From IMG/VR virus record IMGVR_UViG_3300028392_002123: a DNA stretch of 64,000 nt; one strand, 5' to 3'. The position numbers and the translations under genes are program-made. Numbering within the stretch: position 1 is the first letter of the stretch; each line of letters opens with the position of its first letter. Under the pieces are notes generated by a model. That model saw only the letters and a list, made by a program, of their open reading frames with translations. It was not told the origin of the DNA and did no database searches. The stretch comes from a virus. Its lineage: Duplodnaviria > Caudoviricetes. Positions 32,607-51,552 of the stretch are shown here, one piece after another.

Positions 32607-33342
32607 ATAGTTTTGTATATATCAAATATACATAGTCTTTATTAAATTTAGAATCGCTGCCATAATTTAAATCATAGGGCCTATCATGATGATTTTTATG
32701 CAGGCCTTCACCTGCTCCACCCATTAGTAGACTCATCCAAACAGAAATATTAACTGGGCCTGAGCCATTTTTTCCACCATGCGACCAATAGTTAAAAGAT
32801 GTAACTGCTATCAAGTATCTAAGATTTAATAAAGAAAAACTTAGAAAAAACAAATCAGTGTCTATTAGATAAAATACTGCTAAATTTGCAAACCATAGAA
32901 GATAAAAATGTTTTTGTACAAACATAACATCTTTATTTTTAAACACATCACTGAGTGGTACTCTAATATTCTCAGGTACATTAAAGTTACCAATTAAACA
33001 ATTCCAAAATCCCAATTTGGGATTATGCGGATCTTGGTCTGAATCAGGATGTTTATGATGCAGTCTATGTCCCGCTACATATTCTACAGGTTTAACTAAT
33101 GCGGTGCAGACTACGCACCACAGCATGAATATACCAACAGGTCTGCTGGGACTGACTAATTTATGTGCCAGCCAACGATGATAAGCAAAGTTGGCAATTT
33201 TAGTTATAATATCAAATACTAAAAATACAACAACGGCCTTTAGTACGGTTCCACCATTGTCGAAATATACAAAAAGGCCGATGAAGGACAACAAACATAA
33301 AATTAAAAATTTAAATATTTGTTGTTGTTTGATAGTAAACAT
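32578..33342 (-). CDS. Membrane fatty-acid desaturase (delta-9-like)
   Basis: His boxes HRWLAH, HRLHHKH, HKNHH; DSDQDPHNP. Confidence 0.88.
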   Translation of the reverse strand: MFTIKQQQIFKFLILCLLSFIGLFVYFDNGGTVLKAVVVFLVFDIITKIANFAYHRWLAHKLVSPSRPVGIFMLWCVVCTALVKPVEYVAGHRLHHKHPDSDQDPHNPKLGFWNCLIGNFNVPENIRVPLSDVFKNKDVMFVQKHFYLLWFANLAVFYLIDTDLFFLSFSLLNLRYLIAVTSFNYWSHGGKNGSGPVNISVWMSLLMGGAGEGLHKNHHDRPYDLNYGSDSKFNKDYVYLIYTKLFENKNNEYI

Positions 33343-33848
33343 TAACTGAGAAGATCTTCATTCCACTCACGATGCCCTTCTCTGAAGGCCATGTTGCTTT
33401 GAGTTTCACGTACTTCAACCCTGTAGCACCATAAACGTTCTGCTTCGCCTGGGCCCCACATTTCGGGAATATATACGCCATTAACATATTTATACAACAT
33501 GTCGCTGAGACCTTCACAGCCTAGTTTAGGTAGTACGACAATCTTAGCCATTTTCTTTTCTTGTAACAGTTTGTATGTCTCCATCTCTGGATCATCTTGT
33601 GCCACAATTAAAGTGTGATCGAATTGATCTTCTAAGATCTTTTTAAGTTCTTTTAGGCCTCCATAATCAGCCGCCCAGTTACGAACGTCCAAGTTATTGG
33701 TACCGAAATAAAACTTCATTGAAAAACTGTAACCATGTATTAGATTACAGTGACTATCAGCCCGCCATTGCCTGTAGGCGCAGGGAAATGCATCGTGATA
33801 TTCTTTTGTTGATGTATACTTGTAGTATACTGGTTGAAAATTTGCCAT
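33342..33848 (-). CDS. queD: 6-pyruvoyl-tetrahydropterin synthase / QueD-like protein
   Basis: AYRQWRADSHCNLIHGYS, DYGGLKELK..LEDQFDHT, VEVRET..N.A. Confidence 0.82.
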   Translation of the reverse strand: MANFQPVYYKYTSTKEYHDAFPCAYRQWRADSHCNLIHGYSFSMKFYFGTNNLDVRNWAADYGGLKELKKILEDQFDHTLIVAQDDPEMETYKLLQEKKMAKIVVLPKLGCEGLSDMLYKYVNGVYIPEMWGPGEAERLWCYRVEVRETQSNMAFREGHREWNEDLLS

Positions 33849-33920
33849 TGTTATCTCCTTTAGATTAGCAATGACACGCAGAGTATTTAAAGAGGGATGA
33901 GCGTCGTAAAAGTCCTCTAT
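33849..33920 (-). ncRNA. Candidate structured 5' leader (possible riboswitch) of the queD-like gene
   Basis: AGAGG/CCUCU stem at the predicted transcript start; loop ACGC complementary to downstream GCGU; AAAGGAG SD follows. Confidence 0.45.
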
Positions 33921-33926
33921 CTTGCG

Positions 33927-33956
33927 ATTATATACTTATCTCTGTGTGTCTGTCAA
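33927..33956 (-). promoter_or_regulatory. sigma70 promoter TTGACA-N18-TATAAT
   Basis: Perfect hexamers read directly. Confidence 0.8.
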
Positions 33957-33957
33957 G

Positions 33958-34797
33958 TTAAGGTCTACCGATAAGCATAAACCTTTTGTATCCTTTTAAT
34001 TGAAGTTCACCTTCATATAAAACTTCTTTCATTGGGAATTTCTTCTTCATATGATCAACTGTGTGTACACAATTAATATGTTCATCGATGTCAAATAAAT
34101 TATTACTTTGTATAACTACGATGGGATCGGATTCAAGTTCTTTGAAACGTATTTGATTGTACCAGCTATCATCCATGTGTTCTGCACTGGTGTTAATGAT
34201 CAAGTTGGGAAGGAATTTTTCTTCAAAAACTTTTTCCTTTTTAAAATCTTCCACGGGCAAGACATATCCTGTTTTTTGTAAGATAATATCGTTTAAGTCA
34301 GTGCAGACACTTTTGACCTTAAAGTCTGTGAGTTTGTCTAAATTAAAAATATTATCTGAAAAGGTACATGCAGTTCTATCCATGTCGACTATTCTAATTT
34401 TATTATAATCAAATTTAAAATAATCCACTAACTGTCCGAACCAGCCGGCCAATATCAATACGTTTGGTTTATCAAGATTAATTTTACTAAGTTCTGTTGA
34501 TAACCAAATTTTACTTTGTACTTGACCTCGGCTATATGCATCACACAATACTGCACCATCTCCTTGATATCTAAAATATTTGTGAAAGATATCAAGGTGT
34601 TTGTTTGGTGCAAATTTTCTAACAGTACCGATAAACTCTTCCGCACTTCCATCAGATTCTGATTTAATTGTTGGATTATTTGCATAGAGAAGTTTAAGCA
34701 CAAAAAGTATATAATTCCTGGCTTGGTCTTCTTGCATAAAACCAAAGTATTCTTCTAGTCCGTGTAACCAATGTAAAGATCCAGTGCCCGATTCCAT
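33958..34797 (-). CDS. Putative class I SAM-dependent methyltransferase-like protein
   Basis: VLILAGWFG motif I-like segment, IRIVDMD acidic strand end, LIINTSAEHM. Confidence 0.5.
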   Translation of the reverse strand: MESGTGSLHWLHGLEEYFGFMQEDQARNYILFVLKLLYANNPTIKSESDGSAEEFIGTVRKFAPNKHLDIFHKYFRYQGDGAVLCDAYSRGQVQSKIWLSTELSKINLDKPNVLILAGWFGQLVDYFKFDYNKIRIVDMDRTACTFSDNIFNLDKLTDFKVKSVCTDLNDIILQKTGYVLPVEDFKKEKVFEEKFLPNLIINTSAEHMDDSWYNQIRFKELESDPIVVIQSNNLFDIDEHINCVHTVDHMKKKFPMKEVLYEGELQLKGYKRFMLIGRP

Positions 34798-35363
34798 TAT
34801 TTTCTTTCAGGGTATTTTGTCATATTTAGATTCCTGAAACAACTTTGTAGTGCCACAATCTGACTCCAGCAGTCCCAAGCGGCATGATGCAGTCTAGGAT
34901 TAGGACGTTCATGTTCGATCAAGCCATATACTGTTCTAGCGTCTCGAACTTGCCAATACTTCCAAGGAAATCCTCTGCCCAAATGTTTGCACACTTGTTC
35001 AAGAATAACAATATCAAATGCAGGACCGTTGGCCCACATGTTATCAAAACTTTTACACCATCTATGAAAGTCTAGCATTACCTGTTGAATAGGGTGTCTG
35101 TCATCATCTGTAAATGCTTCAAATTGAACTTCGGGTTTTTGTTGTCCCCACCAAGCCAAAGTGTTATCATCTATATGTGCTTCGGGCCATGTAAAACTAG
35201 CAGGGTCAATTCTACGATAAAATGTATCCATGAGGATCTTATCGCCTTCGTAACTTTCCCTGTCATCACCAAACGGGTCGAAACGAATAGCACCAATGGT
35301 AATTACCACGCTGTTAGGCGTAGTTGCCAATGTTTCGATGTCCAACATGATATCATTGGCCAT
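34797..35363 (-). CDS. DEDDh 3'-5' exoribonuclease (Rv2179c-like)
   Basis: MLDIETLA, IGAIRFDP, WANGPAFDIVIL, WQVRDART, HHAAWD. Confidence 0.8.
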   Translation of the reverse strand: MANDIMLDIETLATTPNSVVITIGAIRFDPFGDDRESYEGDKILMDTFYRRIDPASFTWPEAHIDDNTLAWWGQQKPEVQFEAFTDDDRHPIQQVMLDFHRWCKSFDNMWANGPAFDIVILEQVCKHLGRGFPWKYWQVRDARTVYGLIEHERPNPRLHHAAWDCWSQIVALQSCFRNLNMTKYPERK

Positions 35364-35532
35364 TGCTGTCTTTCTTTTTCAGTGACCAAGTGCCGTCTTT
35401 GTTATCAGTCCATTCTAATACATCGCCCTCTTGCCAACCTGCTTCTTCGAGCATATCTGGGGGAAATGTCAAAATACAGTCTCCGGTTGCAGGGTCTTCT
35501 TCTACATTCAATATCCACGATTTATTCGTCAT
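35353..35532 (-). CDS. AbrB/MazE-like small protein
   Basis: Hand-translated 59 aa: ...GDCILTFPPDMLEEAGWQEGDVLEWTDNKDGTWSLKK. Confidence 0.55.
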   Translation of the reverse strand: MTNKSWILNVEEDPATGDCILTFPPDMLEEAGWQEGDVLEWTDNKDGTWSLKKKDSNGQ

Positions 35533-36034
35533 GTTTGATTACCTCTACTCCACTTTTTTTAAGGAATTTGATACCACTATCATCTCTATAGTCTTCACTA
35601 TAAAATACACGGCTAATACCTGACTGAAAAATAAGTTTACTGCATTCCATACAAGGAGCGTGAGTAACAAATAAATCAGCGCCAAGACCACTGTCATTAG
35701 ACTTCGCCAATTTTGCAATAGCATTTGATTCTGCATGTAATACTTCTGGTTTAGTTTTTAACCCGTAACGAACATTTCGCTGTGCTGTTTCATGCCAACC
35801 TTCAAAAGGATACTGTGTATCAAATTCGTCGGGATCTAACCAGCCTCCGGCACCTTTATCCCAGACTTTATCTTCACAGTTATTTTCCCAGCCTGCAGGC
35901 ATGCCATTGTAGCCCATGCTGATAACTCTGTCGTCTTTGACAATGACTGCGCCCACTTGTAGTCTACGAGCATGACTCATTTTAGCTACTTCGTGGGCAA
36001 TATTGTTATATAGTTTTTGGAATTTAGGCTTCAT
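35522..36034 (-). CDS. dCMP deaminase
   Basis: QVGAVIVKD.RVISMGYNGMP, LHAESNAI, THAPCMECSK. Confidence 0.92.
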   Translation of the reverse strand: MKPKFQKLYNNIAHEVAKMSHARRLQVGAVIVKDDRVISMGYNGMPAGWENNCEDKVWDKGAGGWLDPDEFDTQYPFEGWHETAQRNVRYGLKTKPEVLHAESNAIAKLAKSNDSGLGADLFVTHAPCMECSKLIFQSGISRVFYSEDYRDDSGIKFLKKSGVEVIKHDE

Positions 36035-36040
36035 AGCAAG

Positions 36041-36069
36041 ATTGTACTATAAAGCCTTGACGTTGTCAA
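36041..36069 (-). promoter_or_regulatory. sigma70 promoter TTGACA-N17-TACAAT, 6 nt before the dCMP deaminase ATG
   Basis: Read directly; no SD. Confidence 0.8.
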
Positions 36070-36072
36070 TAC

Positions 36073-36696
36073 TTACTTAACCAAAGTAACAAGTATGCCA
36101 ACCGGTGTAGTTATAGGATCGCAGTCTACACCAAAATTTTCTTTTACCCAATGATTGGTAAAATGGTTCCATGTGCAATCATATTTGGTACTGAACTGCA
36201 ATAGCTTTTTGTTTTGTTGAATTACTTCAGTGAAGATTGTTGTATGATCTTCAAAGGCGTCATAGCGAGGATACTCGATGCTAAAGCCGCCAACTTGATG
36301 CCACCAAGCAAAGCTGTCTAAGTCCGGACGATAGATCATCATGATCCATGCATCTGGATATTGAGCCTTAATAGCATCTAAGTGATAGGCCCACTCATGA
36401 CTTTTAATAAACTGTGTGCCTTCTTTTACTGGCCATGGTGCATCTACGTTGGTTTGATCTAATTCTGCTGGATATTCCATGCCCCGACCAAAGTAAGTAC
36501 CTGTGTGTCCAGTAAATTTAATTTTATCCGGATTACGTTCTGCATCAATACTTTCCAAATGAGTATTATGCCATTCTCTTTCTTCTTTACGGTCACTGAT
36601 GTTAGCACCTGGCATAGTTTCTAACATTTGAATAATGTAACTCCAGCGACTGCCTATACCTCCGGTACAGAATATTCTTTGAGGTAATTTGCTCAT
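36073..36696 (-). CDS. Hypothetical protein, possibly sulfotransferase-fold
   Basis: N-terminal IFCTGGIGSRWS loop and IKSH / MIYRPD segments loosely resemble P-loop sulfotransferases. Confidence 0.35.
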   Translation of the reverse strand: MSKLPQRIFCTGGIGSRWSYIIQMLETMPGANISDRKEEREWHNTHLESIDAERNPDKIKFTGHTGTYFGRGMEYPAELDQTNVDAPWPVKEGTQFIKSHEWAYHLDAIKAQYPDAWIMMIYRPDLDSFAWWHQVGGFSIEYPRYDAFEDHTTIFTEVIQQNKKLLQFSTKYDCTWNHFTNHWVKENFGVDCDPITTPVGILVTLVK

Positions 36697-36697
36697 T

Positions 36698-37573
36698 TTA
36701 TTTCCTAGTTAATTTTTGTTCTGCTAAAATTTGAAACTGCTCGAACTCGTCGGGTTTCATAAAAACAGTATGTTCTGTACCAGGGTAAGCACGATTAACA
36801 ACATCATCTATATATTGCTCATAACCCTTTTCTATAATAGGTACTAAGTCTACGTAGACTTTGCTGTGACGAGGTGTATGTTTTTCATACATCTTAAATA
36901 AGTCTGCTCCAATAATATGCACACCGTCGCCTCGGTTACCCGATCCCAAACTAATAATAGGGATAGGTAGTTTTTCTTGTAGGTACTCGACAACTTCGGA
37001 TGTAACAACTTCTGCCATGATACTAAAACAGCCTGCTTCATAAAAAGCCAACGCATCATCTAGCAATGACATTGCATCAACTGCGGTTTTTCCCTGAGCT
37101 TTAAAACCACTTTGTTGTGCATTACGCATTGGACAAATTCCAATATGTCCTTGCACTGGAATACCAGCACGTATAATTGCCTGTATATTTTTAGCGTGAT
37201 ACTGATTGCCTTCACACTTCATTACTTCTGCGCCGCCACGAGCAACGTACATAGCGGCATTTTCAATAGCCTGTGCTTCGCTGTAGTGATAACTCATGTA
37301 AGGCATGTCTACCATGCGTAGGCCATATTGACTGCCACGCTTGACAGCCTGCGCCATGAACATGACTTCTTCGAAGGTCACAGTTGTTGTGCTTTCGTGT
37401 CCAAATAATACCATACCGCCAGTATCACTGACACAGAGAATATCTATGCCCAAACGATCTGCAATGATAGCATTTTCGTAGTCATAAACAGCCAGTTGAG
37501 TTATCGGCTGTTTATTTTTCTTCTTAGCAAGTAATCGATCTATTGTTACTTTTTTTCTAGTTTCGGTGTTCAT
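36698..37573 (-). CDS. panB: 3-methyl-2-oxobutanoate hydroxymethyltransferase
   Basis: AVYDY, IDILCVSD..GMV, VDMPYMSY, KCEG, GIPVQGHIG..P, FKAQGKT, EAGCFSI..E.V. Confidence 0.9.
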   Translation of the reverse strand: MNTETRKKVTIDRLLAKKKNKQPITQLAVYDYENAIIADRLGIDILCVSDTGGMVLFGHESTTTVTFEEVMFMAQAVKRGSQYGLRMVDMPYMSYHYSEAQAIENAAMYVARGGAEVMKCEGNQYHAKNIQAIIRAGIPVQGHIGICPMRNAQQSGFKAQGKTAVDAMSLLDDALAFYEAGCFSIMAEVVTSEVVEYLQEKLPIPIISLGSGNRGDGVHIIGADLFKMYEKHTPRHSKVYVDLVPIIEKGYEQYIDDVVNRAYPGTEHTVFMKPDEFEQFQILAEQKLTRK

Positions 37574-37574
37574 T

Positions 37575-38081
37575 TTAACCTTTGAGATAGTCTAGAACGT
37601 CTTCTGGTTTAGTCACGTTGATTTCGGAAAAATCATCTAACGCAAAGTATTCTATGACGCCATTATTTACAACAGCGGACCATCTTTGACTACGCACTCC
37701 TAGACCTTGATAAGTGAAGTCATAGTCTAGACGTGCATTTCTTATAAAGAAACCATCTCCGTCTGCCAAAATAATCAAATCATTGGTGTTTGTTGTTGCT
37801 AAGATTTTCTTTTCAAATTCTTTACAAACAAAAAAGTCTTGGGCATAAATTGCATAAACATGATCAACATACTCCAGCATTTCTTTAGTCATGTTAGCAT
37901 ACATGATAGCCTGTTCGGTGTCCAGTCTACTAAACGGTGCCGGTCCTCCAAAAAATACAACTCGACTATTATCTGTGATATCTTTTAATTTAAGACTGAC
38001 AGCAACACCATCCGAGTTGATCCTATATACTACACCCAAATCTAAGCTTTCGCCGATTTTGGGAAGATTGTCGATATCCAT
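37575..38081 (-). CDS. Peroxiredoxin-5/redoxin-like protein lacking the peroxidatic Cys
   Basis: VVFFGGPAPFSRLD in place of PGAFTPTC; ADGDG.F, GLGVRSQRW..VVNNGVIE. Confidence 0.7.
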   Translation of the reverse strand: MDIDNLPKIGESLDLGVVYRINSDGVAVSLKLKDITDNSRVVFFGGPAPFSRLDTEQAIMYANMTKEMLEYVDHVYAIYAQDFFVCKEFEKKILATTNTNDLIILADGDGFFIRNARLDYDFTYQGLGVRSQRWSAVVNNGVIEYFALDDFSEINVTKPEDVLDYLKG

Positions 38082-39696: not shown

Positions 39697-39725
39697 ATTA
39701 TAATATAAATCTAATTAATTGTCAA
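39697..39725 (-). promoter_or_regulatory. Consensus sigma70 promoter TTGACA-N17-TATAAT
   Basis: Read directly. Confidence 0.85.
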
Positions 39726-42603: not shown

Positions 42604-42679
42604 TGGTTGCGGGTGAAGGATTCGAACCTCCGTCCTCCAGGTTATGAGCCTGACAGTCTGACCACTGACGTAACCCGCG
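42604..42679 (-). tRNA. tRNA-fMet (CAU), initiator type
   Basis: 76 nt cloverleaf CGCGGGU...ACCCGCAACCA; C1:A72 mismatch, G11:C24, loop CUCAUAA, encoded CCA. Confidence 0.9.
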
Positions 42680-42688
42680 GTATGCTAT

Positions 42689-43258
42689 TTATAGTAAGCC
42701 TTCTTGCGTTAATATTTGTACAGTACGATCGCTGAGTGCAATCTCTGTGCGTACATTTAACTCAAGCAATTCGTCTTGCAATTTTTGTTTAGATTTTTTT
42801 ACTAAACTGACCAAGATTTTAAAACCTTTGATATCTTCTTCTTGGAAGATACTGGTAGAAACTGTGTTTTCGAAGCCGTAGATACTGCGACTGTCTTCTT
42901 TACGATTTCTAATTTTTGCCAATTTACCTTCGATGTGTGTGGGATCTTCTCGAACTGCCTTGGCCATGAATGCGGTATAACTTTGGATTTGTTTATCCAA
43001 GTGTGCAATGTCTGCCAAGCGCATGTCAACACCCACTTGATTATTGGCCGCACTAGTGGCTTTGCGAATTTCATAGACCGCAGACACCAAAGTGTCTTTA
43101 CGTGCAAGATCTTCTTTGAATTTCATAACTGCTTTGGCTAGTTCTGGTTCAACAGTTTGAAATTCATTGAGACTGACTTCAGTGACCAAATTAATAGACT
43201 TGATCGCGTCATTGATGCTATTTTGCAGTACAGAAGCTTTACGTAAACTAATGTTCAT
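42689..43258 (-). CDS. Hypothetical coiled-coil protein
   Basis: 189 aa; AAGGA SD. Confidence 0.65.
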   Translation of the reverse strand: MNISLRKASVLQNSINDAIKSINLVTEVSLNEFQTVEPELAKAVMKFKEDLARKDTLVSAVYEIRKATSAANNQVGVDMRLADIAHLDKQIQSYTAFMAKAVREDPTHIEGKLAKIRNRKEDSRSIYGFENTVSTSIFQEEDIKGFKILVSLVKKSKQKLQDELLELNVRTEIALSDRTVQILTQEGLL

Positions 43259-43267
43259 TTTTATTCC

Positions 43268-43441
43268 TTACTTTTTGTCTTTGTTATTTCGACCGGTGCG
43301 CTGACGACTTTCAGCTTCTGCAATAGCCACATAGCTACGCATAAAAGCACCACGCTTGTGCGGATCACTGATAGTTGATGCCGCCATTTTTACCAAACTA
43401 CCGATTTTAACGGCCTTGGGATCATATCCTCTACATGTCAT
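43268..43441 (-). CDS. 57 aa hypothetical protein
   Basis: Hand-translated MTCRGYDPKAVKIG...; AAAGGA SD and its own promoter. Confidence 0.6.
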   Translation of the reverse strand: MTCRGYDPKAVKIGSLVKMAASTISDPHKRGAFMRSYVAIAEAESRQRTGRNNKDKK

Positions 43442-43464
43442 TTTATTTCCTTTAAGTTAACAAT

Positions 43465-43493
43465 ATTATACAACAAAATTAAAACAGAGTCAA
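43465..43493 (-). promoter_or_regulatory. sigma70 promoter TTGACT-N17-TATAAT
   Basis: Read directly. Confidence 0.8.
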
Positions 43494-43499
43494 GAAAGC

Positions 43500-43770
43500 A
43501 AGTAACCAACTGGACAAAAAACAGTGAAATTAATTTCTTAATTTCCAACAAGTCACAATGCACAAAGCACAGAGACTTGTATATGTCTGGTTAGCAAATC
43601 ACAAAGTCGATAAAGTTCGGACCAGTTCACACAAGTGCGGGGCGTTTTCAAGGCGCCTGCCATTGGAGTTATGTTCGTAATCGCATGTAGCGATAACGAG
43701 TGTCAGTTCTCATCTCTTTCTTTTCTCCGGGTAGTTCGCTTTCGCTACTACCAAAACTATAAATCTGTGT
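43500..43770 (-). ncRNA. Candidate structured RNA downstream of tRNA-Pro
   Basis: At least five hairpins including a GAAA tetraloop and a final 7-bp stem followed by a U-tract. Confidence 0.4.
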
Positions 43771-43778
43771 TGGTAAAT

Positions 43779-43855
43779 TGGTCGGAGTACAAGGATTCGA
43801 ACCTTGGACCCCCTGGTCCCAAACCAGGTGCGCTACCAGACTGCGCCACACTCCG
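43779..43855 (-). tRNA. tRNA-Pro (UGG)
   Basis: Cloverleaf CGGAGUG..., loop UUUGGGA, TTCGAAT, CCA. Confidence 0.95.
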
Positions 43856-43937
43856 AATAAAATCTTGCCTTATTAGAACGGTTAGGCTACCGGTTAAATT
43901 CTCGACTCTAACTGTGATTCAATCTCGGTGGAAAAAA

Positions 43938-44567
43938 TTATTCTAGTCTGCTAAATCCCCATTGACGTTCTTCACACCACCAACAGTGACCGCAGTGGCC
44001 ACTAGTTAGTATAAGATCTTCGCAGGACCTTGTCAAGGGAAATATATCGTCTAATACATTCAATTCCTTATATATACCCGAAATTACTTTTTTATCAACG
44101 TTGATAAAAGGTCTATAATTCCTATTGTTATTCCCTGTGTAAAATGGTTTAATATCATAGGGATTGCGTTCTGATCGAGTACGACTATTATCTGTAAATT
44201 TATCTGTTACTTCTACCGGAGGATTTGCTGTTACCCCTGTGTACAAATAATTTATTTTTCCCGAGTTAAGATCTGCAATACCATGCGTTAACATATTACT
44301 TTCTGTTTGTTCATCGACAAACACAACATGATGATAGACATTATTTCTATTTAACATATCTATACATTTGCCAATTACTTTTAATGCATAATGCGGTGCT
44401 GTTCTACTTTTTGCTTTATTGGCACATGTATAAACATGCACAGCACCTTTTGCATATTTCATTAAAATATACAGCAATATTGAACTGTCGGCTCCTCCGC
44501 TGACACTAACACCGATCGGTCCATCATGAATGTCAATGTTAACATTATTAATTGTCAACGTCTGCAT
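43938..44567 (-). CDS. QueC-like PP-loop ATPase (7-cyano-7-deazaguanine synthase family)
   Basis: [10 protein letters not shown]-loop and C-terminal TRSC...[10 protein letters not shown] Zn site. Likely start ATG 44567. Confidence 0.7.
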
Positions 44568-44568
44568 G

Positions 44569-44853
44569 TTATTCTGTTTTATTTGATTCTTCAGCGTCCC
44601 GACGGAACTCATCTTCCATCCACAACATTTTTCGATGCTGATACATTTCTTCGCTGAGTCCGTGCCAGCCGATACACTTGCCTGTTGGGCTACGGCCGCA
44701 ACCACACTTGCCAAATTCTTCTGCGTTTTCTTTTACTCTTACCTGCATAGCCTGTTCCTTATTTTTATTAAAAATTCTGTCCCAATTGGATGCATAAGTT
44801 TCTGCACCAATGCTAAATGGACGAGGTGAGCTACCTTTGCCGCCATCACTCAT
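44569..44853 (-). CDS. Small protein with CDGSH-like Cys3His motif
   Basis: [15 protein letters not shown]. Confidence 0.55.
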
Positions 44854-44890
44854 AGTAATTCCTCAAAATTGTATAATTACTTATTCATAG

Positions 44891-44919
44891 ATTATACAAT
44901 AGATCCTGCAGGCAGTCAA
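44891..44919 (-). promoter_or_regulatory. sigma70 promoter TTGACT-N17-TATAAT
   Basis: Read directly. Confidence 0.8.
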
Positions 44920-45056
44920 GCAGTTTTTAACTTTTTTAAATTATCTATTGCCAATTTTACATCATTGACATTGATACATAATCTCTGTGCTATTTCAAAT
45001 GCACTAAGCCTAAGTTCTAAATAGGATCTAATTTCTGCAAGTATAAGACGCGACAT
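44916..45056 (-). CDS. 46 aa protein, HTH-like
   Basis: Hand-translated ...LSAFEIAQRLCINVNDVKLAI...; GGAG SD. Confidence 0.5.
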   Translation of the reverse strand: MSRLILAEIRSYLELRLSAFEIAQRLCINVNDVKLAIDNLKKLKTA

Positions 45057-45128
45057 ACTAATCTCCAGGTATATAATATATAACGCATGAACTTAGTCTG
45101 TCGTTGACAACACACTATAAATATTTTG

Positions 45129-45896
45129 ATGCAAGACTTATTTGATATACTATACACACCCCTGGACTGTCCGCCAATGCCTAAAATAGATGTGGACAAA
45201 CTGGATCTTTGGCAACAAGATCGAGTCAATAATTTTGACAAGAACAAATCAGCAAGCGCGGCCGAACTTCAGTCCAATGCTCGCACTTGGTTTATGAAAA
45301 AATCTTTTTTTCAAGGAGATCAAAATCAATATCCCTGGGATCTATCTATGTTATATTATAATAAAAATAACAGCAACGTGGGATGGTTAGGCGGATTTGA
45401 TAAAGAGTTCCCCGAACTAGTAGAGTATATTAACTCAGCTTTTGGAATACCAGTGCATGAATTTGGCACAGTATTATTACTGCCTGTTAAAAAATCACAT
45501 ACTGGAATATACTGGCATAGAGATGATGATACATCGGGTCTGCGTATGTACATTGAACACGAAGATCCAGTGAACAATACATTAATAATGCGTAGATCTG
45601 TGACCAGAGATAGATGGCCCTTGCCATGGCAGTATGATATTACTAGGCCGTTAAATGGATTTCAAGAAGAAGATTTAACCTGCAACATTGTCAGTAAAAA
45701 TCAATGTTTCTTCCTGAACAATATTAGAGCATTGCATGCCACAGTGACCAAAGCACCTGAGCGCAGAAGATTCACATTGTTGTTTGGCGACAAGTTAAAT
45801 AGAGTCATGCCAAATAGAATTAATCAACTCACCGAAGATTTAATCAAACGTAGTGCTGAAAAATACAAAGAGCAGGCCATACTATGGCCGGTTTAA
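45129..45896 (+). CDS. 2OG-Fe(II) oxygenase-like protein
   Basis: WHRDD...LHATV...RRF; ATG 5 nt after TATAAATA. Confidence 0.55.
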   Translation: MQDLFDILYTPLDCPPMPKIDVDKLDLWQQDRVNNFDKNKSASAAELQSNARTWFMKKSFFQGDQNQYPWDLSMLYYNKNNSNVGWLGGFDKEFPELVEYINSAFGIPVHEFGTVLLLPVKKSHTGIYWHRDDDTSGLRMYIEHEDPVNNTLIMRRSVTRDRWPLPWQYDITRPLNGFQEEDLTCNIVSKNQCFFLNNIRALHATVTKAPERRRFTLLFGDKLNRVMPNRINQLTEDLIKRSAEKYKEQAILWPV

Positions 45897-46090
45897 ACAG
45901 CAGTCAATGCTTGTTTGAGTGCCGCTAACTCTGCGTCAGACATAACTAATTCTAGTTTGTTCTGCTCTGCATCTGGATTACGGGCCCATGCATAAGTTGT
46001 AAAAATTCGAACATGGTTGTCATATGGGGCAACGTTTAATTTACGAACTTCGCAGTACAACTTATAACCTGCTTTGTCACTGATAATCAT
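45893..46090 (-). CDS. Hypothetical protein
   Basis: 65 aa; AGGAG SD. Confidence 0.6.
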   Translation of the reverse strand: MIISDKAGYKLYCEVRKLNVAPYDNHVRIFTTYAWARNPDAEQNKLELVMSDAELAALKQALTAV

Positions 46091-46109
46091 ATCGACTCCT
46101 TTTAAAATA

Positions 46110-46185
46110 TGGCTCCCCGAGCTGGGTTCGAACCAGCGACCAGCGGATTAACAGTCCGTTACTCTACCAACTGAGCTATCAGGGA
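46110..46185 (-). tRNA. tRNA-Asn (GUU)
   Basis: Cloverleaf UCCCUGA..., loop CUGUUAA, CCA. Confidence 0.95.
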
Positions 46186-46191
46186 ATAATT

Positions 46192-46267
46192 TGGTGGAAG
46201 TTGACGGGATCGAACCGCCGACATTCTGCGTGTAAGGCAGACGCTCTACCATCTGAGCTAAACTTCC
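46192..46267 (-). tRNA. tRNA-Val (UAC)
   Basis: Cloverleaf GGAAGUU..., loop CUUACAC, CCA. Confidence 0.95.
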
Positions 46268-46269
46268 TA

Positions 46270-46413
46270 TTATCTTGTAAAATACCTTTTTATCTTGATC
46301 CAGTAGTACCTAACTCCACGTGGAGTTTTGATCCAATCTGCATCAAACCAAAAACCTATTTCTCGGGGCATATTGCCATATGCCTTGTTTAAAGTATCTT
46401 CTTGCTTTGACAT
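46270..46413 (-). CDS. 47 aa basic protein between tRNAs
   Basis: Hand-translated MSKQEDTLNKAYGNMPREIG...; AAGGAG SD. Confidence 0.6.
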   Translation of the reverse strand: MSKQEDTLNKAYGNMPREIGFWFDADWIKTPRGVRYYWIKIKRYFTR

Positions 46414-46432
46414 ATATGCTCCTTATAGTAAA

Positions 46433-46508
46433 TGGTGGAGGTGACAGGGATCGAACCCGCGACCTACTGGTTGCAAACCAGTCGCTCTCCCAATTGAGCT
46501 ACACCCCC
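46433..46508 (-). tRNA. tRNA-Ala (UGC)
   Basis: G3:U70 identity pair, loop UUUGCAA, CCA. Confidence 0.95.
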
Positions 46509-46509
46509 A

Positions 46510-47313
46510 TTAATTTTTAAACTTGGCTAAATTTAACTTAACCAATAATTCTATTGTTCTTGCCGCTGGATCGAGTTCATACCATTTTCTTCCATAGCGA
46601 TAATTCGCAGGATCATCATGATGATTTCGATGCCAAGCATCTCCGTTATTAATATTCAGCATAACCAGTACTAGGCTGTTACTACCTTTATTATTACCTC
46701 CAACAGGTAATAACCATGCAGGAGTGTTATGACCCCATGCGTTAATGCTATGCATCTTGTTGATGGTCAATCCCAACACAGCAATCCAAAATAACAACAA
46801 TTCTGGACTAATAAAATAAAGCGACAATAACCATACTGCATTTATTACCCAACTATATCTTGCAAACCATGCATGAGTAGGGTCCTTGGCTAGATCGGGC
46901 GCATACTGTATTTTAATGGGAGTAAAATACGTACAAAACTGAATCCACAGCCTAGATTTAAAATAAGGACTATGCGGATCACGTTCGGTGTCAGCATGTC
47001 TATGATGTTGTCTATGCACAGCGGCCCAACCTATGCTGGTGCCAACCATGGTAATTGTGAATAAAAATAATCCTAGAATATTCAGATATTTCTTAGGTAC
47101 CCAGGATCTATGCGACCATGCTCTGTGTGCAAAAATAGTAAGATTAATTCCTAGTGCGTATACAGTAATCAACAGTATTGCAATGGAACTAAAATTAAAA
47201 TTATTTGCAATCCAATATACACTGACTATCAAACTAGTGATGCCCACGGTGCTTAACAACCAAGGTTCAATTTTAACTCTGTCTAAGACCATATTATTCT
47301 TTAATGAATACAT
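46510..47313 (-). CDS. Membrane fatty-acid desaturase (delta-9-like), third paralog
   Basis: His boxes HRAWSH, HRQHHRH, HRNHH; DTERDPHSP; WYELDP. Confidence 0.88.
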   Translation of the reverse strand: MYSLKNNMVLDRVKIEPWLLSTVGITSLIVSVYWIANNFNFSSIAILLITVYALGINLTIFAHRAWSHRSWVPKKYLNILGLFLFTITMVGTSIGWAAVHRQHHRHADTERDPHSPYFKSRLWIQFCTYFTPIKIQYAPDLAKDPTHAWFARYSWVINAVWLLSLYFISPELLLFWIAVLGLTINKMHSINAWGHNTPAWLLPVGGNNKGSNSLVLVMLNINNGDAWHRNHHDDPANYRYGRKWYELDPAARTIELLVKLNLAKFKN

Positions 47314-47740
47314 ATTCGTAGTTCACTGTTTCAGTGTTTTCTCTATGTACCACAGCACCATTACGCAAATGAAATTTTCTCGCAGTATCTGTTCTAGGAC
47401 TCAGTGTTATAAATCTACTTATACCGGGTCGAGTTTGTTTTATATGTTTTACTGCATCAAAAATTAACTGTCTACCCGAGCCTGGCTTATAACTCCATAT
47501 GGTGTAGAATACTGCTATATTGGGTTCTTCAGATTCTTCAAACAATTCTAATTCATTGCTGGGAATACTACCCTGATAACTAACACAGGTAATCGCTTTT
47601 GCTTTATGTTCGTCATCACGTAGAACAAAAATATCTTTGTTATTACCCACACGATCCATGTGTGCAATATGTGGTCGTACCGGATCTTCATTTAAATGAA
47701 CGACAAACTTATCGCTGAGATTTTGTACAAGATGCAACAT
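47294..47740 (-). CDS. Hypothetical protein, GNAT-like fold (tentative)
   Basis: FYTIWSYKPGSGRQL...TLSPRT.TARKFHLRNG resembles an acetyl-CoA-binding motif A/B. Confidence 0.45.
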   Translation of the reverse strand: MLHLVQNLSDKFVVHLNEDPVRPHIAHMDRVGNNKDIFVLRDDEHKAKAITCVSYQGSIPSNELELFEESEEPNIAVFYTIWSYKPGSGRQLIFDAVKHIKQTRPGISRFITLSPRTDTARKFHLRNGAVVHRENTETVNYEYVFIKE

Positions 47741-47741
47741 A

Positions 47742-48590
47742 TTAATAATGAATTCCTTCTGTGGGTATACTAGGATCAAATTCGTAATCCTCGGGAAGTT
47801 CAATAACGCTGTTTCTATCTAATAAGTCAATCATTCCTGCACCGGGTATACCTGATATACGTATCTGTCTACGACGACTTGTAACAACAGGCACTCCGTG
47901 ATAAAAATAATCATTGGTTATATAAACGGGATCATCTGCCAATTTATAATTGACCAATTCTTTGCCGTCTAGTGCCCAATACAACGGAACTCCTCCGTTG
48001 GAAATATTAATATTAAGTGTTATAAAACCTTTTGAAAAAACTTTGTTGACACCTGCACTGGACTTTCCATCATAAAGTCCCTTCATATCCCTGTGAATTG
48101 TTGCCATTCCACCAGGATCTAAATGCACACAATGCATCCAAATTATTTTTTCAAAAGGCAATGTATCTTTTATCCATTTAACTATGGCCAAATCTTTAAA
48201 TTCTTCTTTGACATTAAATGTCAAATCAAAACCTTCATTGCGTAAACTAGGCCCTGCGTATTTTCCCATGGTCAATAACAGCGGATCTGTAATTCCTTTT
48301 GCATCTAACTCAACCAAAGAAGCCATCTTCCATGCTCTTCGATTTTTTGTAATTGTTTTATATGTATTAAAGTTTCCAGGTTGTTGCCAACAATCTACTT
48401 CATCATAGGCTGAATCCGGAGCCATTTGCCAAATACTATTTAATTTCTTAGTTGCAGTCAGTCCATCACACGAATTACATATAGTAACTCCTATAGGAGC
48501 AATATATCGGTCGTACTCATCGATGAATGTATCTTGCTGATTTCCAAAGTCTACATTCAATTTGGCAAATGCAAAATTTTTAAAATACAT
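47742..48590 (-). CDS. 2OG-Fe(II) oxygenase-like protein
   Basis: IHRD...NINI...FYHGV...RRQIR. Confidence 0.55.
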   Translation of the reverse strand: MYFKNFAFAKLNVDFGNQQDTFIDEYDRYIAPIGVTICNSCDGLTATKKLNSIWQMAPDSAYDEVDCWQQPGNFNTYKTITKNRRAWKMASLVELDAKGITDPLLLTMGKYAGPSLRNEGFDLTFNVKEEFKDLAIVKWIKDTLPFEKIIWMHCVHLDPGGMATIHRDMKGLYDGKSSAGVNKVFSKGFITLNINISNGGVPLYWALDGKELVNYKLADDPVYITNDYFYHGVPVVTSRRRQIRISGIPGAGMIDLLDRNSVIELPEDYEFDPSIPTEGIHY

Positions 48591-48599
48591 GTTATCGAT

Positions 48600-48821
48600 G
48601 TTCCTGTTATTAGTTGTCCAGCTACTCGCACCACACGAGCCCTGAACTGAGCAGTTACTCTGTCCACGTATTTCTTCTTTTGGTAAAGGTTAACGTTCCT
48701 CACCCTAGGCAGTTTTCGGTATCCCATATAGCGGGACCGTAAGGTCAGGTCCTAGTGTACCCCCTAGTCTATCGTTCAAGGGACGCTCTTATTATAACGT
48801 AAAAGAGTAAACCGGGTTTCT
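48600..48821 (-). ncRNA. Candidate structured RNA downstream of tRNA-Thr
   Basis: Several nested stems in a 220 nt ORF-free stretch. Confidence 0.45.
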
Positions 48822-48897
48822 TGGTGCCCCCACCATGATTCGAACACGGGACCTACTGATTACAAATCAGTTGCTCTACCAGCTGAGCTATAAGGGC
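48822..48897 (-). tRNA. tRNA-Thr (UGU)
   Basis: Cloverleaf GCCCUUA..., loop UUUGUAA, CCA. Confidence 0.95.
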
Positions 48898-48929
48898 AAT
48901 ATTATTACTTATTTTTGCTATTCAAAATT

Positions 48930-49003
48930 TGGAGCGGGATAGCGGAATCGAACCGCTGACTTGAACTTGGAAGGATCTCGTTTTACCACTAAACTAATCC
49001 CGC
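48930..49003 (-). tRNA. tRNA-Gly (UCC)
   Basis: 74 nt, GCGGGAU..., loop CUUCCAA, CCA; anticodon stem has two mismatches. Confidence 0.85.
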
Positions 49004-49014
49004 ACTAAAAGGGA

Positions 49015-49210
49015 GAAACTACGGTTGCAGGACCTAATGCTCTTTCGAGGAAGTATCCAGGCGATGTAGTTTCAAATTTGAAACCATATAAAAACTCTCT
49101 GCGGCGCTTGAATCCACGGTAGCCCTGCTCTTCATGGCCGGTCCCGGTACATGGTCGACATTGACCGGTGTTTCGGTGTTCCACTGTAGCTACTACAGAA
49201 AGTTTTTATA
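49015..49210 (-). ncRNA. Two closed-stem candidate sRNA modules between tRNA-Leu and tRNA-Gly
   Basis: Terminal inverted repeats GAAACTAC/GTAGTTTC and TATAAAAACT/AGTTTTTATA enclosing GC-rich hairpins. Confidence 0.45.
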
Positions 49211-49294
49211 TGGTGCCCCAGAGGAGACTCGAACTCCTACACCTCTCGATAGTGGCTTCTAAGACCACCGCGTCTACCATTCCGCCACCGGGGC
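49211..49294 (-). tRNA. tRNA-Leu (UAG)
   Basis: 84 nt class II tRNA with variable arm, loop CUUAGAA, CCA. Confidence 0.95.
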
Positions 49295-49340
49295 AAATAC
49301 CAACACAAATTTTTAAAGAACAATTTTTCTACAATAACGT

Positions 49341-49369
49341 ATTATACACAGAAACAGATTTACTGTCAA
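49341..49369 (-). promoter_or_regulatory. Consensus sigma70 promoter TTGACA-N17-TATAAT driving the Leu-Gly-Thr tRNA operon
   Basis: Read directly. Confidence 0.88.
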
Positions 49370-49476
49370 TAAAACAGAATTATCATTTCTTAAAATAAAA
49401 GTATTACAGTGGAAGTCTACAAAAGAATTATTGTAGCAGTTTATTTATCTCTAGTCAATGACTAATCTTGCCAAAT

Positions 49477-50037
49477 TCAAATTAATCTTTGATTGACCAC
49501 ATCCCAATTGATGATGCGCCAAATATTTTCTAGATACTTTTTCTTGTCAGCTTGATAGTCTAGGGCCCAGGCGTGTTCCCACCAATCAATTAACAGTACA
49601 ATTCTATCTGTGTTGCCTGTGATGCTGTGGTTGGCAATGGTCTGTATACGACCTGCGCGATCTAAAAAGATCCAACCACTGCCCTGTATGGCCATGGCCT
49701 TGGCACTGACTTGATCTTTAAATTCATCAAAGCTTTTAAAATTACGAGTGATAAAGTCCTTGGAATTTCCAGTAGGTTGATTGCCGGACTTGGGTGCTTG
49801 TAGCTGTGGAAAGAATATATTGTGCAAGTCTGCACCATTCTTATTGAACTTGGCGTCACCTTCGCCTGAGTTATAACGATCTACATAGGCCTTGGCCAAG
49901 GTGCCGTAGTGATAGTCTAGGGTAGCTTCGCTCATCACGGGTGCCAAGTCTGTTCTTTTATAGGGCAGTTTGTTAAGGCTAAGAGTCAACTTAGTGCCTT
50001 CAACCACCATGATATATCTTCTAATATCGTATTGCAT
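49477..50037 (-). CDS. sod: Fe/Mn superoxide dismutase
   Basis: LPY...LAPVMSE.TLDYH, LHNIFF, GSGW, DWWEHA..LDY; four metal ligands retained. Confidence 0.9.
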   Translation of the reverse strand: MQYDIRRYIMVVEGTKLTLSLNKLPYKRTDLAPVMSEATLDYHYGTLAKAYVDRYNSGEGDAKFNKNGADLHNIFFPQLQAPKSGNQPTGNSKDFITRNFKSFDEFKDQVSAKAMAIQGSGWIFLDRAGRIQTIANHSITGNTDRIVLLIDWWEHAWALDYQADKKKYLENIWRIINWDVVNQRLI

Positions 50038-50040
50038 ATG

Positions 50041-50056
50041 ATTATTTATAAATAAT
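50041..50056. promoter_or_regulatory. Palindromic bidirectional T4 late-type promoter (ATTATTTATAAATAAT)
   Basis: Perfect 16 bp palindrome giving TATAAATA on both strands, each 5 nt before a divergent ATG. Confidence 0.75.
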
Positions 50057-50059
50057 TAC

Positions 50060-50494
50060 ATGAGATACTGGGCAGAATATGTCAAAGCCGGTTGGGAATT
50101 AGTAGTATTAGCACAAGGTACTAACAAAGTCTATTTGGATCAAGACTTGGAAGCATTTCTAGTTCATGTTGTTGCTAGAACATTTGAACGCACAGATCTA
50201 TGGACAGAGCCTGTGGCAATTAAACTAATGACTGCACAGCAGTTACCACAGTATCAAAGACAGATAGCACTGAGAAACATAGGTGAGGAATGTCTGTTCA
50301 TTGACGCTTGGCAGATCAAGCAACCACGTTGGCCAGCACCTAAATACTTTGAAGACATGGGCAAGATTGCCTTTGGCTATGCCAGCGTAGCCACTGACCC
50401 TGCAGATGATTTACTGGATGCTGCCGCGGAAAATTTCACCATGGTAAGTCGTGTGCTTAGATATACCAGAGACTTGTATCTACACAATGTCTAA
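50060..50494 (+). CDS. Hypothetical protein
   Basis: 144 aa ORF divergent from sod. Confidence 0.65.
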   Translation: MRYWAEYVKAGWELVVLAQGTNKVYLDQDLEAFLVHVVARTFERTDLWTEPVAIKLMTAQQLPQYQRQIALRNIGEECLFIDAWQIKQPRWPAPKYFEDMGKIAFGYASVATDPADDLLDAAAENFTMVSRVLRYTRDLYLHNV

Positions 50495-51229
50495 GTAATC
50501 TGATTTTTTATACTGGCTGATCAAGGCCTGCTGTTTGTATTTAGATACACTACGTTCCAGCAAATCATGATATTTTTTAATGTCGATGCCGCATTCATCA
50601 AATATTAAAACTAGTTTTCTAAATTCAGGATTGTACAAACTGCCATGTACTGTTCTCAAATTATTCCAAACAAAAGAATTTGTTTCTTCTAGTCTAGGTA
50701 TAAAAAATCTGTCATTCATTTTGCTGTCTGGTAATTTTTCCGCTGTATAAAGAGTCTGCTGGGGATTGTTGTCAAACAGCATTATTCTAAAACTACTGGG
50801 ATAATCAGTGAATTCAGTTTGATCTCTGTGCGGCCTAACTGGCCGATTACTGGACCACAGCTTTATATGTGGTACCACAGTAAAAGGAAATTCTTCCATG
50901 ACACGTTCCATGAAAAAAGGAAATAGAGTTAAAAACTCTTGTTTTGGATTTGTGGTCCAGTGATCAAATTTATTTGTATTCCCCGTGGGAAACACATCTA
51001 CTACGTCGTAGTTTGTTACACCTATCACAGGACTGGCAATATCGGCCTTGATTTTTTTATTTGGCACAGCATGGTTCGCAAACCATTGATTAATTTCTGG
51101 ATAGTTGTACACCGGCACGGCCAAGGGAACATAAGAATATTCTCCAAAAATTTCCAACTCTGCCAGTCTAGGATATTTTTCCAATTGACGGCTGCGGTTG
51201 ATGGTAAACTGAGATCGTTCTGTGATCAA
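50480..51229 (-). CDS. 2OG-Fe(II) oxygenase-like protein
   Basis: PHRD...VHGS...RK. Confidence 0.55.
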   Translation of the reverse strand: MITERSQFTINRSRQLEKYPRLAELEIFGEYSYVPLAVPVYNYPEINQWFANHAVPNKKIKADIASPVIGVTNYDVVDVFPTGNTNKFDHWTTNPKQEFLTLFPFFMERVMEEFPFTVVPHIKLWSSNRPVRPHRDQTEFTDYPSSFRIMLFDNNPQQTLYTAEKLPDSKMNDRFFIPRLEETNSFVWNNLRTVHGSLYNPEFRKLVLIFDECGIDIKKYHDLLERSVSKYKQQALISQYKKSDYLDIV

Positions 51230-51230
51230 T

Positions 51231-51437
51231 TTAACTTTTCCATTCGGAGGCCGCGGACCAGGGCTTGAGGCTGTGTTTAGCCATTAAAAATGTGCGCTCA
51301 CCGGGCTGTTTGCATACAGTGATAAACTCTACACCGTCAATATTTTTAACCTGAGTATAATTTTCACAGTACCAAACATCGCCAGTTAGATCGTTTTTTA
51401 ACAATCGTGCTCGCACGGTACTATTGTTTTTCTTCAT
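51231..51437 (-). CDS. Hypothetical protein
   Basis: Likely start ATG 51437; the longer track ORF overlaps the tRNA. Confidence 0.55.
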   Translation of the reverse strand: MKKNNSTVRARLLKNDLTGDVWYCENYTQVKNIDGVEFITVCKQPGERTFLMAKHSLKPWSAASEWKS

Positions 51438-51476
51438 AAGATAAGACAGCAATTTATAGTAATTGCCAACTATAAT

Positions 51477-51552
51477 TGGAGCGGGCGAAGAGGTTCGAAC
51501 TCTCGACATTTACCTTGGCAAGGTAATGCTCTACCAACTGAGCTACGCCCGC
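51477..51552 (-). tRNA. tRNA-Gly (GCC)
   Basis: Cloverleaf GCGGGCG..., loop UUGCCAA, CCA. Confidence 0.96.

Follow-up and report, generated by a model that had tools for sequence, protein, structure and literature searches.

What controls the queD-like gene of an uncultured tailed phage, and could the short RNA in front of it act as a sensor of a small molecule? The question is raised by a stretch of 64,000 nt, called the window here, from the IMG/VR virus record IMGVR_UViG_3300028392_002123 (Duplodnaviria; Caudoviricetes). The full record extends to 141.7 kb, with about 39% GC and an estimated completeness of 41%. A sequence-only reading of the window had placed a riboswitch-like pseudoknot in the leader of this gene. 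The proposal is examined here by comparing the leader with those of related phage genes, with the families in Rfam 15 and with RNAs of similar design.

The queD-like gene, its promoter and its pathway

The transcription unit at issue can be described by three features, and all features of the leader lie on the same strand as the gene:

33951..33956, minus strand: -35 hexamer TTGACA, one half of a 12/12 promoter match
33927..33932, minus strand: -10 hexamer TATAAT, the other half of the 12/12 match
33342..33848, minus strand: QueD/PTPS-family gene of 168 aa with its start AUG at 33848-46, the candidate regulated gene

The two hexamers are separated by a spacer of 18 nt and match a σ70-type promoter at all 12 positions. 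Transcription is predicted to start at about 33919-33920, which lies 1-2 nt 5′ of the first stem (P1) of the pseudoknot and gives a leader of about 72 nt up to the AUG. The perfect TTGACA-N18-TATAAT promoter and the leader of roughly 70 nt that had been read from the window alone are thus confirmed.

The 168-aa ORF matches PF01242 (PTPS/QueD) with 54.4 bits (cut-off 22.4), and it also matches phrog_2389, annotated as "QueD-like"; the QueD models of NCBIfam match it below their curated cut-offs. The window has two ORFs of the desaturase family, and the stop codon of the queD-like gene overlaps the start of the first one. Among 156 distinct proteins linked to the motif, S-H-C-x3-H-G-Y, D77-H78 and E148 are invariant; of these residues, C34, H38, G39, D77, H78 and E148 make up the catalytic Cys-x3-His-Gly, the Asp-His and the pterin-binding Glu. 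The zinc site of E. coli QueD consists of three histidines (H16, H31 and H33). This canonical three-histidine site does not occur in the phage proteins, in which Tyr/Phe25 and Tyr40 take up two of its positions. The same substitutions are present in the QueDs of Pseudomonas phage Iggy and Acidovorax phage ACP17, both of which are encoded in 7-deazaguanine clusters (in Iggy, in the order QueE-QueC-QueD-FolE-DpdA), and this common signature identifies the window gene as a phage-type QueD.

More of the pathway can be seen in five large relatives that are 58-100% complete, two of which (353 and 382 kb) reach 98-100%. FolE is encoded in all five, and so is a radical-SAM enzyme resembling QueE (phrog_2076, E = 2e-51). 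No convincing QueC was found in these genomes, which gave weak PP-loop matches only, and no match to TGT/DpdA was obtained in a search that must be considered weak, since its phrog_887 control matched in no genome. FolE and QueE were not found in the window's own record, that is, in the available 41% of that genome. A phosphoribosyltransferase and a HIT protein recur nearby. Overall, the pathway looks like one leading from GTP to a 7-carboxy-7-deazaguanine-type product.

Architecture of the pseudoknot

The core of the leader spans 46 nt on the minus strand (33918-33873) and forms an H-type pseudoknot with a P1 of 5 bp and a P2 of 5+2 bp. Its elements, in 5′ to 3′ order, are as follows:

33914..33918, minus strand: 5′ strand of P1, AGAGG, pairing with 33891-33895
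33906..33913, minus strand: loop L1, ACUUUUAC, with C33912 and U33911 invariant and the remainder variable
33898..33905, minus strand: 5′ strand of P2, made up of GACGC (P2b, 33905-01), the mismatched U33900 and CA (P2a, 33899-98)
33896..33897, minus strand: loop L2, UC, whose invariant C33896 abuts the 3′ strand of P1 on its 5′ side
33891..33895, minus strand: 3′ strand of P1, CCUCU, pairing with 33914-33918
33881..33890, minus strand: loop L3, UUAAAUACUC, 10 nt, of which three A's and the terminal UC are invariant; the TAAATA lies within it
33873..33880, minus strand: 3′ strand of P2, made up of UG (P2a, 33880-79), the mismatched C33878 and GUGUC (P2b, 33877-73)

Two invariant G-C pairs close the top of P1. 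The pairs of P2b are G33905-C33873, A33904-U33874, C33903-G33875, G33902-U33876 and C33901-G33877; past them comes the U33900/C33878 mismatch, followed by the P2a pairs C33899-G33879 and A33898-U33880. L1 varies between 3 and 9 nt in relatives, with an N-C-U to which 0-6 variable nucleotides are added. L3 is A-rich and of fixed length, and its 10 nt would lie along P1. By its likeness to the UC/AC motif of preQ1-I riboswitches, C33896 is a candidate ligand-specificity base (PMC11625349).

When the leader of the window was folded as a single sequence, the minimum free energy was -8.2 kcal/mol (z = +0.70), and 153 of 200 shuffled sequences folded equally well or better. There is accordingly nothing in the lone sequence beyond chance, and the support for the structure is comparative.

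Covariation and conservation

A search of IMG/VR with the QueD-like protein produced 586 relatives, and the best 80 of these, with 88-95% amino-acid identity, were kept. Among these 80, the same element was present at every locus with sufficient upstream DNA. A set of 58 distinct leader cores, gathered by protein homology only, was aligned with MAFFT in a structure-agnostic manner and scored at columns 3-7/27-31 for P1 and at columns 17-21 and 23-24 with 43-44 and 46-50 for P2. Paired cells amounted to 88.8%, compared with 75.1 +/- 0.9 in shuffled alignments (0/500), and the covariation score was 0.338, compared with 0.123 +/- 0.012 (0/500). As a control, the pairing partners were slid by 1-3 columns, and covariation then came to 0.081 at most. 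Compensatory changes on both sides were found in 9 of the 12 pairs, including six of the seven pairs of P2, and the exchanges within P1 were AU/UA, GC/CG and CG/AU/UA. RNAalifold recovers P1 independently. Conservation and covariation among homologues had been put forward as a check of the original proposal, and both were found.

The AGAGG/CCUCU stem of that proposal, presumably identical to P1 of the B. subtilis preQ1-I riboswitch, is complementary as described; it is paired in 99.7% of cases over the 58 leaders, with compensatory changes in three of its five pairs. The second helix fared less well in its details. An H-type pseudoknot does exist, and it is conserved and covarying, but the register that had been given for it, ACGC with GCGU, is two nucleotides off. 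That pairing is literally complementary in the window; across the alignment, a slide of -2 pairs just 49.6% of cells, against the 88.8% obtained with the register described above.

The sample was widened with a covariance model (R1) and a degenerate pattern scan of IMG/VR, and R1 matched 77 of the 80 loci from the scan. In all, about 190 instances with 130 distinct cores were counted, all in contigs of uncultured phages. In an anchor-based count over the 130 cores, the third pair of P1 is CG in 89, AU in 27 and UA in 14. In P2a, the C-G pair is invariant and its neighbour is A-U in 126 cores and G-C in four. Positions 1-5 of P2b are paired in 86, 85, 88, 81 and 72% of cores, and the pairing falls to 40% and 29% past the helix. 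L2 reads UC in 94 cores (72%), CC in 23, AC in nine and UUC in four. The loops are more conserved than the stems: the C-U in L1, the C in L2, the A.A.A..UC in L3 and the U-C mismatch, kept in 130/130 cores, are all retained. The pattern used to collect part of the loci (L090 onward) forces the loop invariants, so that this invariance counts as an independent observation only for the two sets gathered by protein.

To break this circularity, a second clade of QueD proteins, 29% identical to the protein of the window, was gathered by protein alone. The element lies directly upstream of the gene in 28 of the 39 loci of this divergent clade, and it has the same loop nucleotides. In an alignment fitted to P2, this helix is 93.4% paired, with a covariation score of 0.488 compared with 0.186.

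A structure at the 5′ end of the transcript

Where the element begins relative to transcription was surveyed in 153 distinct upstream regions of relatives, with random windows from the same loci as the control. A -10-like hexamer was found to end 4-12 nt before P1 (mode 7) in 54 of the 153 regions, compared with 4.8% of random windows. In 70 of the 153, a TAAATA or TAAGTA precedes P1, its modal end lying 8 nt before the stem, compared with 0.6% of random windows. The latter sequences resemble the core of T4 late promoters. The position of these promoter-like elements ahead of P1 indicates that, with both types of promoter, the pseudoknot is the 5′-terminal structure of the mRNA.

A TAAATA also occurs within the leader itself, and it had been suggested that it would give rise to a later transcript that bypasses the stem. 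This second promoter is rejected here. The stretch belongs to L3, which is conserved as RNA with the consensus W-U-A-N-A-A-A-Y-U-C, and most relatives spell no promoter there.

Distribution and gene association

An ORF of the QueD family follows the element in 77 of the 80 loci from the pattern scan and in nearly all of them starts 0-42 nt downstream, and the identity of these proteins to that of the window ranges from 94% down to 29%. QueD is the first downstream ORF in 186 of 199 instances and the second in six, where the inserted ORF is a small ORF, a cupin-like protein or a methyltransferase; the remaining instances are chance matches to the pattern or truncated contigs. The other neighbours vary, and include UvdE, a glycosyltransferase, a DAHP/KDO8P-synthase-like protein, SOD and a B12-radical-SAM enzyme, among others. 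An upstream ORF of 279 aa and the commonest downstream neighbour (277 aa) showed no homology to each other.

The 141.7-kb record of the window contains no second copy of the element, the next-best match reaching 11.8 bits (E = 0.85). In one of the relatives (G001), the unit of motif and queD lies outside the stretch with FolE and QueE. The motif is absent from the queD genes of Iggy and ACP17, where queD sits within an operon, and a blastn search of INPHARED with two leaders returned chance fragments only among cultured phages. Bacterial genomes, one per GTDB species, were scanned with a pattern for the AGCGG variant, which is the commonest, and gave five matches, of which two were real and the rest chance. 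Both of the real ones were on phage-like contigs binned into Bacteroidota MAGs. The element is apparently restricted to phages.

Comparison with known RNA families

A search against Rfam had been recommended with the original proposal, and it gave no match to preQ1-I (RF00522) or to any other model. At the gathering threshold, Rfam 15 produced no match over the window. At E <= 10, with sequences of 401 and 57 nt and with six other leaders, no family was matched either, the only returns being chance matches to SNORD42, Mu-gpT-DE, mir-549 and ar15. Likewise, no description of this RNA was found in the literature searched. The element is not a member of preQ1-I, preQ1-II or preQ1-III as those families are defined.

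Nevertheless, its design is a familiar one. The preQ1-I riboswitches are H-type pseudoknots with a conserved G-C pair at the top of P1, and the two bases before the 3′ strand of P1 are UC in type I and AC in types II and III, their C pairing with the ligand (PMC11625349). In types I and III, the 5′ strand of P1 is followed by UU; L3 is A-rich and, in type I, interrupted by C, and a short P2 buries bases of the SD sequence (PMC11625349). The phage element shares many of these hallmarks with the preQ1-I RNAs of B. subtilis queC, T. tengcongensis and E. coli (RF00522). It is an H-type fold at the 5′ end of an mRNA, with a P1 of 5 bp topped by G-C; an invariant C, mostly after U as in type I, stands directly 5′ of the 3′ strand of P1; L3 is A-rich and C-interrupted, and a gene of the 7-deazaguanine pathway follows.

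The differences are equally plain. L1 of the phage element is N-C-U plus 0-6 nt, whereas preQ1-I has U or UU in contact with the ligand layer, and its P2 is of 5+2 bp with an invariant U-C mismatch, whereas that of preQ1-I has 3-4 bp and buries the first nucleotides of the SD sequence or leads into a terminator. L2 has a length of 2 nt. The 10 nt of L3 do not vary in number and close with U-C, where the structures of preQ1-I, whose L3 docks in the minor groove of P1, have a ligand-contacting A. Moreover, the SD sequence of the phage leaders lies outside P2, 13-25 nt downstream, in a separate helix that sequesters the ribosome-binding site (RBS), and the element is found only in contigs of uncultured phages. 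Taken together, the preQ1-I-like hallmarks and the position outside every Rfam family bear out the frame in which the leader was originally set, that of a variant or a new class. By analogy, the element would work like a pseudoknot sensor of the preQ1-I type, related to it in design.

Other RNAs offer looser parallels. The preQ1-II (RF01054) and preQ1-III (RF02680) riboswitches are also pseudoknotted sensors, linked to queuosine genes, that act at the level of translation, but theirs are HLout folds of 60-100 nt with embedded or extra hairpins, while the phage element is an H-type fold with no hairpin within L3 and matches neither model. SAM-II, SAM-V, fluoride and guanidine-III riboswitches resemble it in having two helices and a pocket of loop nucleotides, yet they show no similarity in sequence or model and are associated with other genes. 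The THF-I and THF-II (folE motif) riboswitches regulate genes of the branch from GTP to pterins and recognise a guanine-like pterin face; they differ in being built from a hairpin with an internal loop or from a three-way junction, and no Rfam match to them was found here. Finally, the mRNA of T4 gene 32 is a phage transcript whose 5′ end folds into an H-type pseudoknot, ahead of the RBS. Its effector is the ssDNA- and RNA-binding protein that the gene encodes, whereas the present element precedes the gene of a T-fold enzyme and has loop invariants like those of a ligand pocket.

Putative expression platform

Downstream of the core, the leader contains a predicted hairpin that would occlude the start codon:

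33846..33873, minus strand: expression platform, hairpin CAUUG (33873-69)/CAAUG (33850-46) with an inner stem AUCU/AGAU
33855..33860, minus strand: SD sequence AAGGAG

In this prediction, the CAUUG/CAAUG hairpin sequesters the AUG, and C33873 is common to the hairpin and to P2. An RBS-sequestering helix abuts P2 and shares 1-2 nt with the 3′ strand of P2 in each of three classes of platform:

Class A (the window included): (C)AUUG...CAAUG, with the start codon sequestered and an overlap of 1 nt with P2
Class B: CCUAUG...CAUAGG, with the SD sequence sequestered and an overlap of 2 nt with P2
Class C: (C)AUC...GAUG, with the start codon sequestered and an overlap of 1 nt with P2

Computed access to the RBS was 0.460 with native aptamers and 0.448 with shuffled ones (p = 0.19), and masking the aptamer raised it from 0.46 to 0.62. 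Given how close the native and shuffled values are, the thermodynamic model shows neither a signal of switching nor the direction in which regulation would go.

A candidate riboswitch and its alternatives

The leader has one of the features generally expected of a riboswitch, namely a conserved, structured and covarying candidate aptamer in the 5′ UTR of a gene of metabolism. In the main reading, to which we assign a probability of about 0.6, the 46-nt core is the aptamer of a candidate riboswitch that controls translation in cis and travels with phage queD-like genes. Most likely, then, the RNA is a new small-molecule sensor, similar to the smallest of the preQ1 riboswitches known. Its ligand would present a guanine-like face and bind at the junction of P1 and P2 against the invariant C of L2, as in preQ1-I. 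The original proposal had named preQ0/preQ1, a pterin or GTP; candidate ligands would be 7-deazaguanines such as preQ1, preQ0 and CDG, or else a pterin that arises along the FolE-QueD-QueE route. By stabilising P2, the ligand would alter access to the RBS of queD. The result could be an ON switch if P2 and the sequestering helix compete, for which class B is the clearest case, or an OFF switch if that helix stacks coaxially on P2, which would amount to classical 7-deazaguanine feedback.

A more specific proposal is possible, if rather speculative. It holds that the element is an undescribed, phage-restricted class that would sense, in place of preQ1, a compound formed earlier on the FolE-QueD-QueE route (CDG, CPH4 or dihydroneopterin triphosphate) or the nucleotide of that compound. 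Stabilisation of P2 by this ligand would free the start codon or SD sequence, turning expression ON, and the element would thereby gate a QueC/DpdA-independent 7-deazapurine pathway in giant phages.

How do other explanations fare against the same observations? It is unlikely that the element is a highly divergent but true preQ1-I member, an expanded "type" that binds preQ1 and turns queD off, although this idea overlaps with the main reading. The H-type fold, the 5-bp P1 with its G-C top, the UC/AC-like N-C, the C-interrupted, A-rich L3 and the link to the queuosine pathway all speak in its favour, but RF00522 gives no score even at E <= 10, either with the 57-nt sequence or with the six other representatives. 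In addition, L1 is N-C-U rather than UU, P2 exceeds the usual 3-4 bp with its 7 bp and a mismatch, L2 is of 2 nt, L3 ends in the invariant U-C and the SD sequence is outside the pseudoknot. The phages concerned also seem to lack QueC and QueF, and so would not make preQ1 themselves. Less probable again is a protein-binding translational operator, most plausibly one through which QueD would control its own synthesis, or else one bound by a conserved host factor, much as with T4 gene 32 or ribosomal-protein leaders. Pseudoknots at the 5′ end of mRNAs can serve as protein operators, and here a 5′-terminal H-type pseudoknot is directly followed by the RBS and lacks a thermodynamic signature of switching. 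Furthermore, QueD is the only protein sure to co-occur with the RNA, because RNA and gene travel together. Against this stands the nature of QueD, a T-fold enzyme that is not known to bind RNA. The loops of the RNA are invariant though the protein diverges to 29% identity, which fits an unchanging small-molecule effector more easily, and the layout of the junction, with its C before the 3′ strand of P1 and its A-rich L3, is of the ligand-binding type of pseudoknot.

An effector may not be involved at all. A constitutive 5′ structure, serving in RNase protection or as a ribosome standby site or enhancer, would account for a location at the very 5′ end under early-type and late-type promoters alike and for a computed RBS access that does not differ between native and shuffled aptamers; we regard it as improbable, since a mere stabiliser would not need invariant unpaired nucleotides, an L3 fixed at 10 nt or an invariant U-C mismatch. 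It would also be expected at other phage genes, and what is found is a single copy per genome, always at queD. Far less credible than any of these, and contradicted by the compensatory changes, is the notion that the element is functionless and conserved neutrally through recent common ancestry. Many of the leaders do come from closely related contigs, yet 9 of 12 pairs carry compensatory exchanges, the same variants of P1 recur in different platform classes, and the element persists at 29% protein identity and among differing flanking genes.

Significance for phage biology

Other phages use 7-deazaguanine genes to modify their DNA against restriction. Phage-encoded riboswitches are few, and none is known that controls phage 7-deazaguanine genes. 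The leader described here is a candidate for a new riboswitch, proposed from its sequence comparisons and absent from Rfam 15 and from the literature searched. The RNA is compact, at about 46 nt, its covariation is very clean and some 190 natural instances of it were found; it would extend the smallest riboswitch fold to a new and larger architecture if it does bind preQ1 or preQ0, and it would represent a new ligand class if it binds CDG or a pterin. In giant phages, the element marks a FolE-QueD-QueE(-PRTase-HIT) gene set that apparently lacks QueC/DpdA.

Genomic setting of the leader

Several features of the window lie in the region around the motif-queD leader:

34797-38081, strand (-): auxiliary genes upstream of the leader
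36041-36069, strand (-): sigma-70-type promoter, TTGACA-17-TACAAT, 11/12 match
39697-39725, strand (-): sigma-70-type promoter, TTGACA-17-TATAAT, 12/12 match
42607-51552, strand (-): nine tRNA genes (Rfam tRNA matches, 55-70 bits)

Apart from a peroxiredoxin-like ORF, the auxiliary genes encode an Rv2179c-like 3'-5' exoribonuclease, a dCMP deaminase and PanB, the ketopantoate hydroxymethyltransferase, at full length (E = 1e-77). The two additional near-perfect promoters share the strand of the motif-queD leader and suggest that the surrounding gene block holds several early-type transcription units.

A TATAAT hexamer also occurs within the class B leaders, where the SD is sequestered by a hairpin, CCUAUG...CAUAGG, whose strongly conserved loop reads CUAUAAU(U)AA throughout the class (e.g., L003:2960-3003). 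The hexamer could be read either as a second promoter or as mere loop sequence.

Extra and variant copies of the motif

In one locus, L102, the motif occurs twice, and the additional copy (L102:6-54, strand (+); 26.4 bits) is degenerate: its P1 reads ACCAG/CUGGU, and it has lost the invariant GG/CC and CUCUGC. This copy is followed by a 309-aa SAM-methyltransferase-like ORF (L102:68-997), and an intact motif-queD unit lies ~1 kb after it. A methyltransferase-like ORF also sits between motif and queD in L196. A variant at L234:1429-1470 (17.1 bits), with an L3 of only ~7 nt and a P1 of 4 bp, may represent either decay of the motif or its minimal version.

In a scan of GTDB representative genomes for the commonest variant, the motif was matched in only two, a Haliscomenobacter MAG and a Chitinophagales MAG, in both cases on phage-like contigs binned into these Bacteroidota assemblies. 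Their location weakly hints at the host, or else reflects binning contamination.

QueD and the putative 7-deazapurine genes

The motif-linked QueD subfamily (the window protein, encoded at 33342-33848 (-), and 156 relatives) has an invariant S-H-C-x3-H-G-Y signature. Tyr or Phe occupies two of the three positions that hold the Zn-binding histidines in the canonical enzyme (E. coli QueD), and phages Iggy and ACP17 have QueDs with the same replacement. The metal site may therefore differ from that of bacterial QueD.

Genes for FolE, QueD and a QueE-like radical-SAM enzyme are present in all five large relatives, some of them near-complete (G001-G005; e.g., G001:C1:147000-156500), and close by are genes for a phosphoribosyltransferase and a protein with a HIT domain. 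QueC was not detected in these five genomes (only weak PP-loop matches), nor was DpdA/TGT, although the latter search was weak, since the control phrog_887 matched no genome. This set may constitute a 7-deazapurine nucleotide route that bypasses the known DNA transglycosylase.
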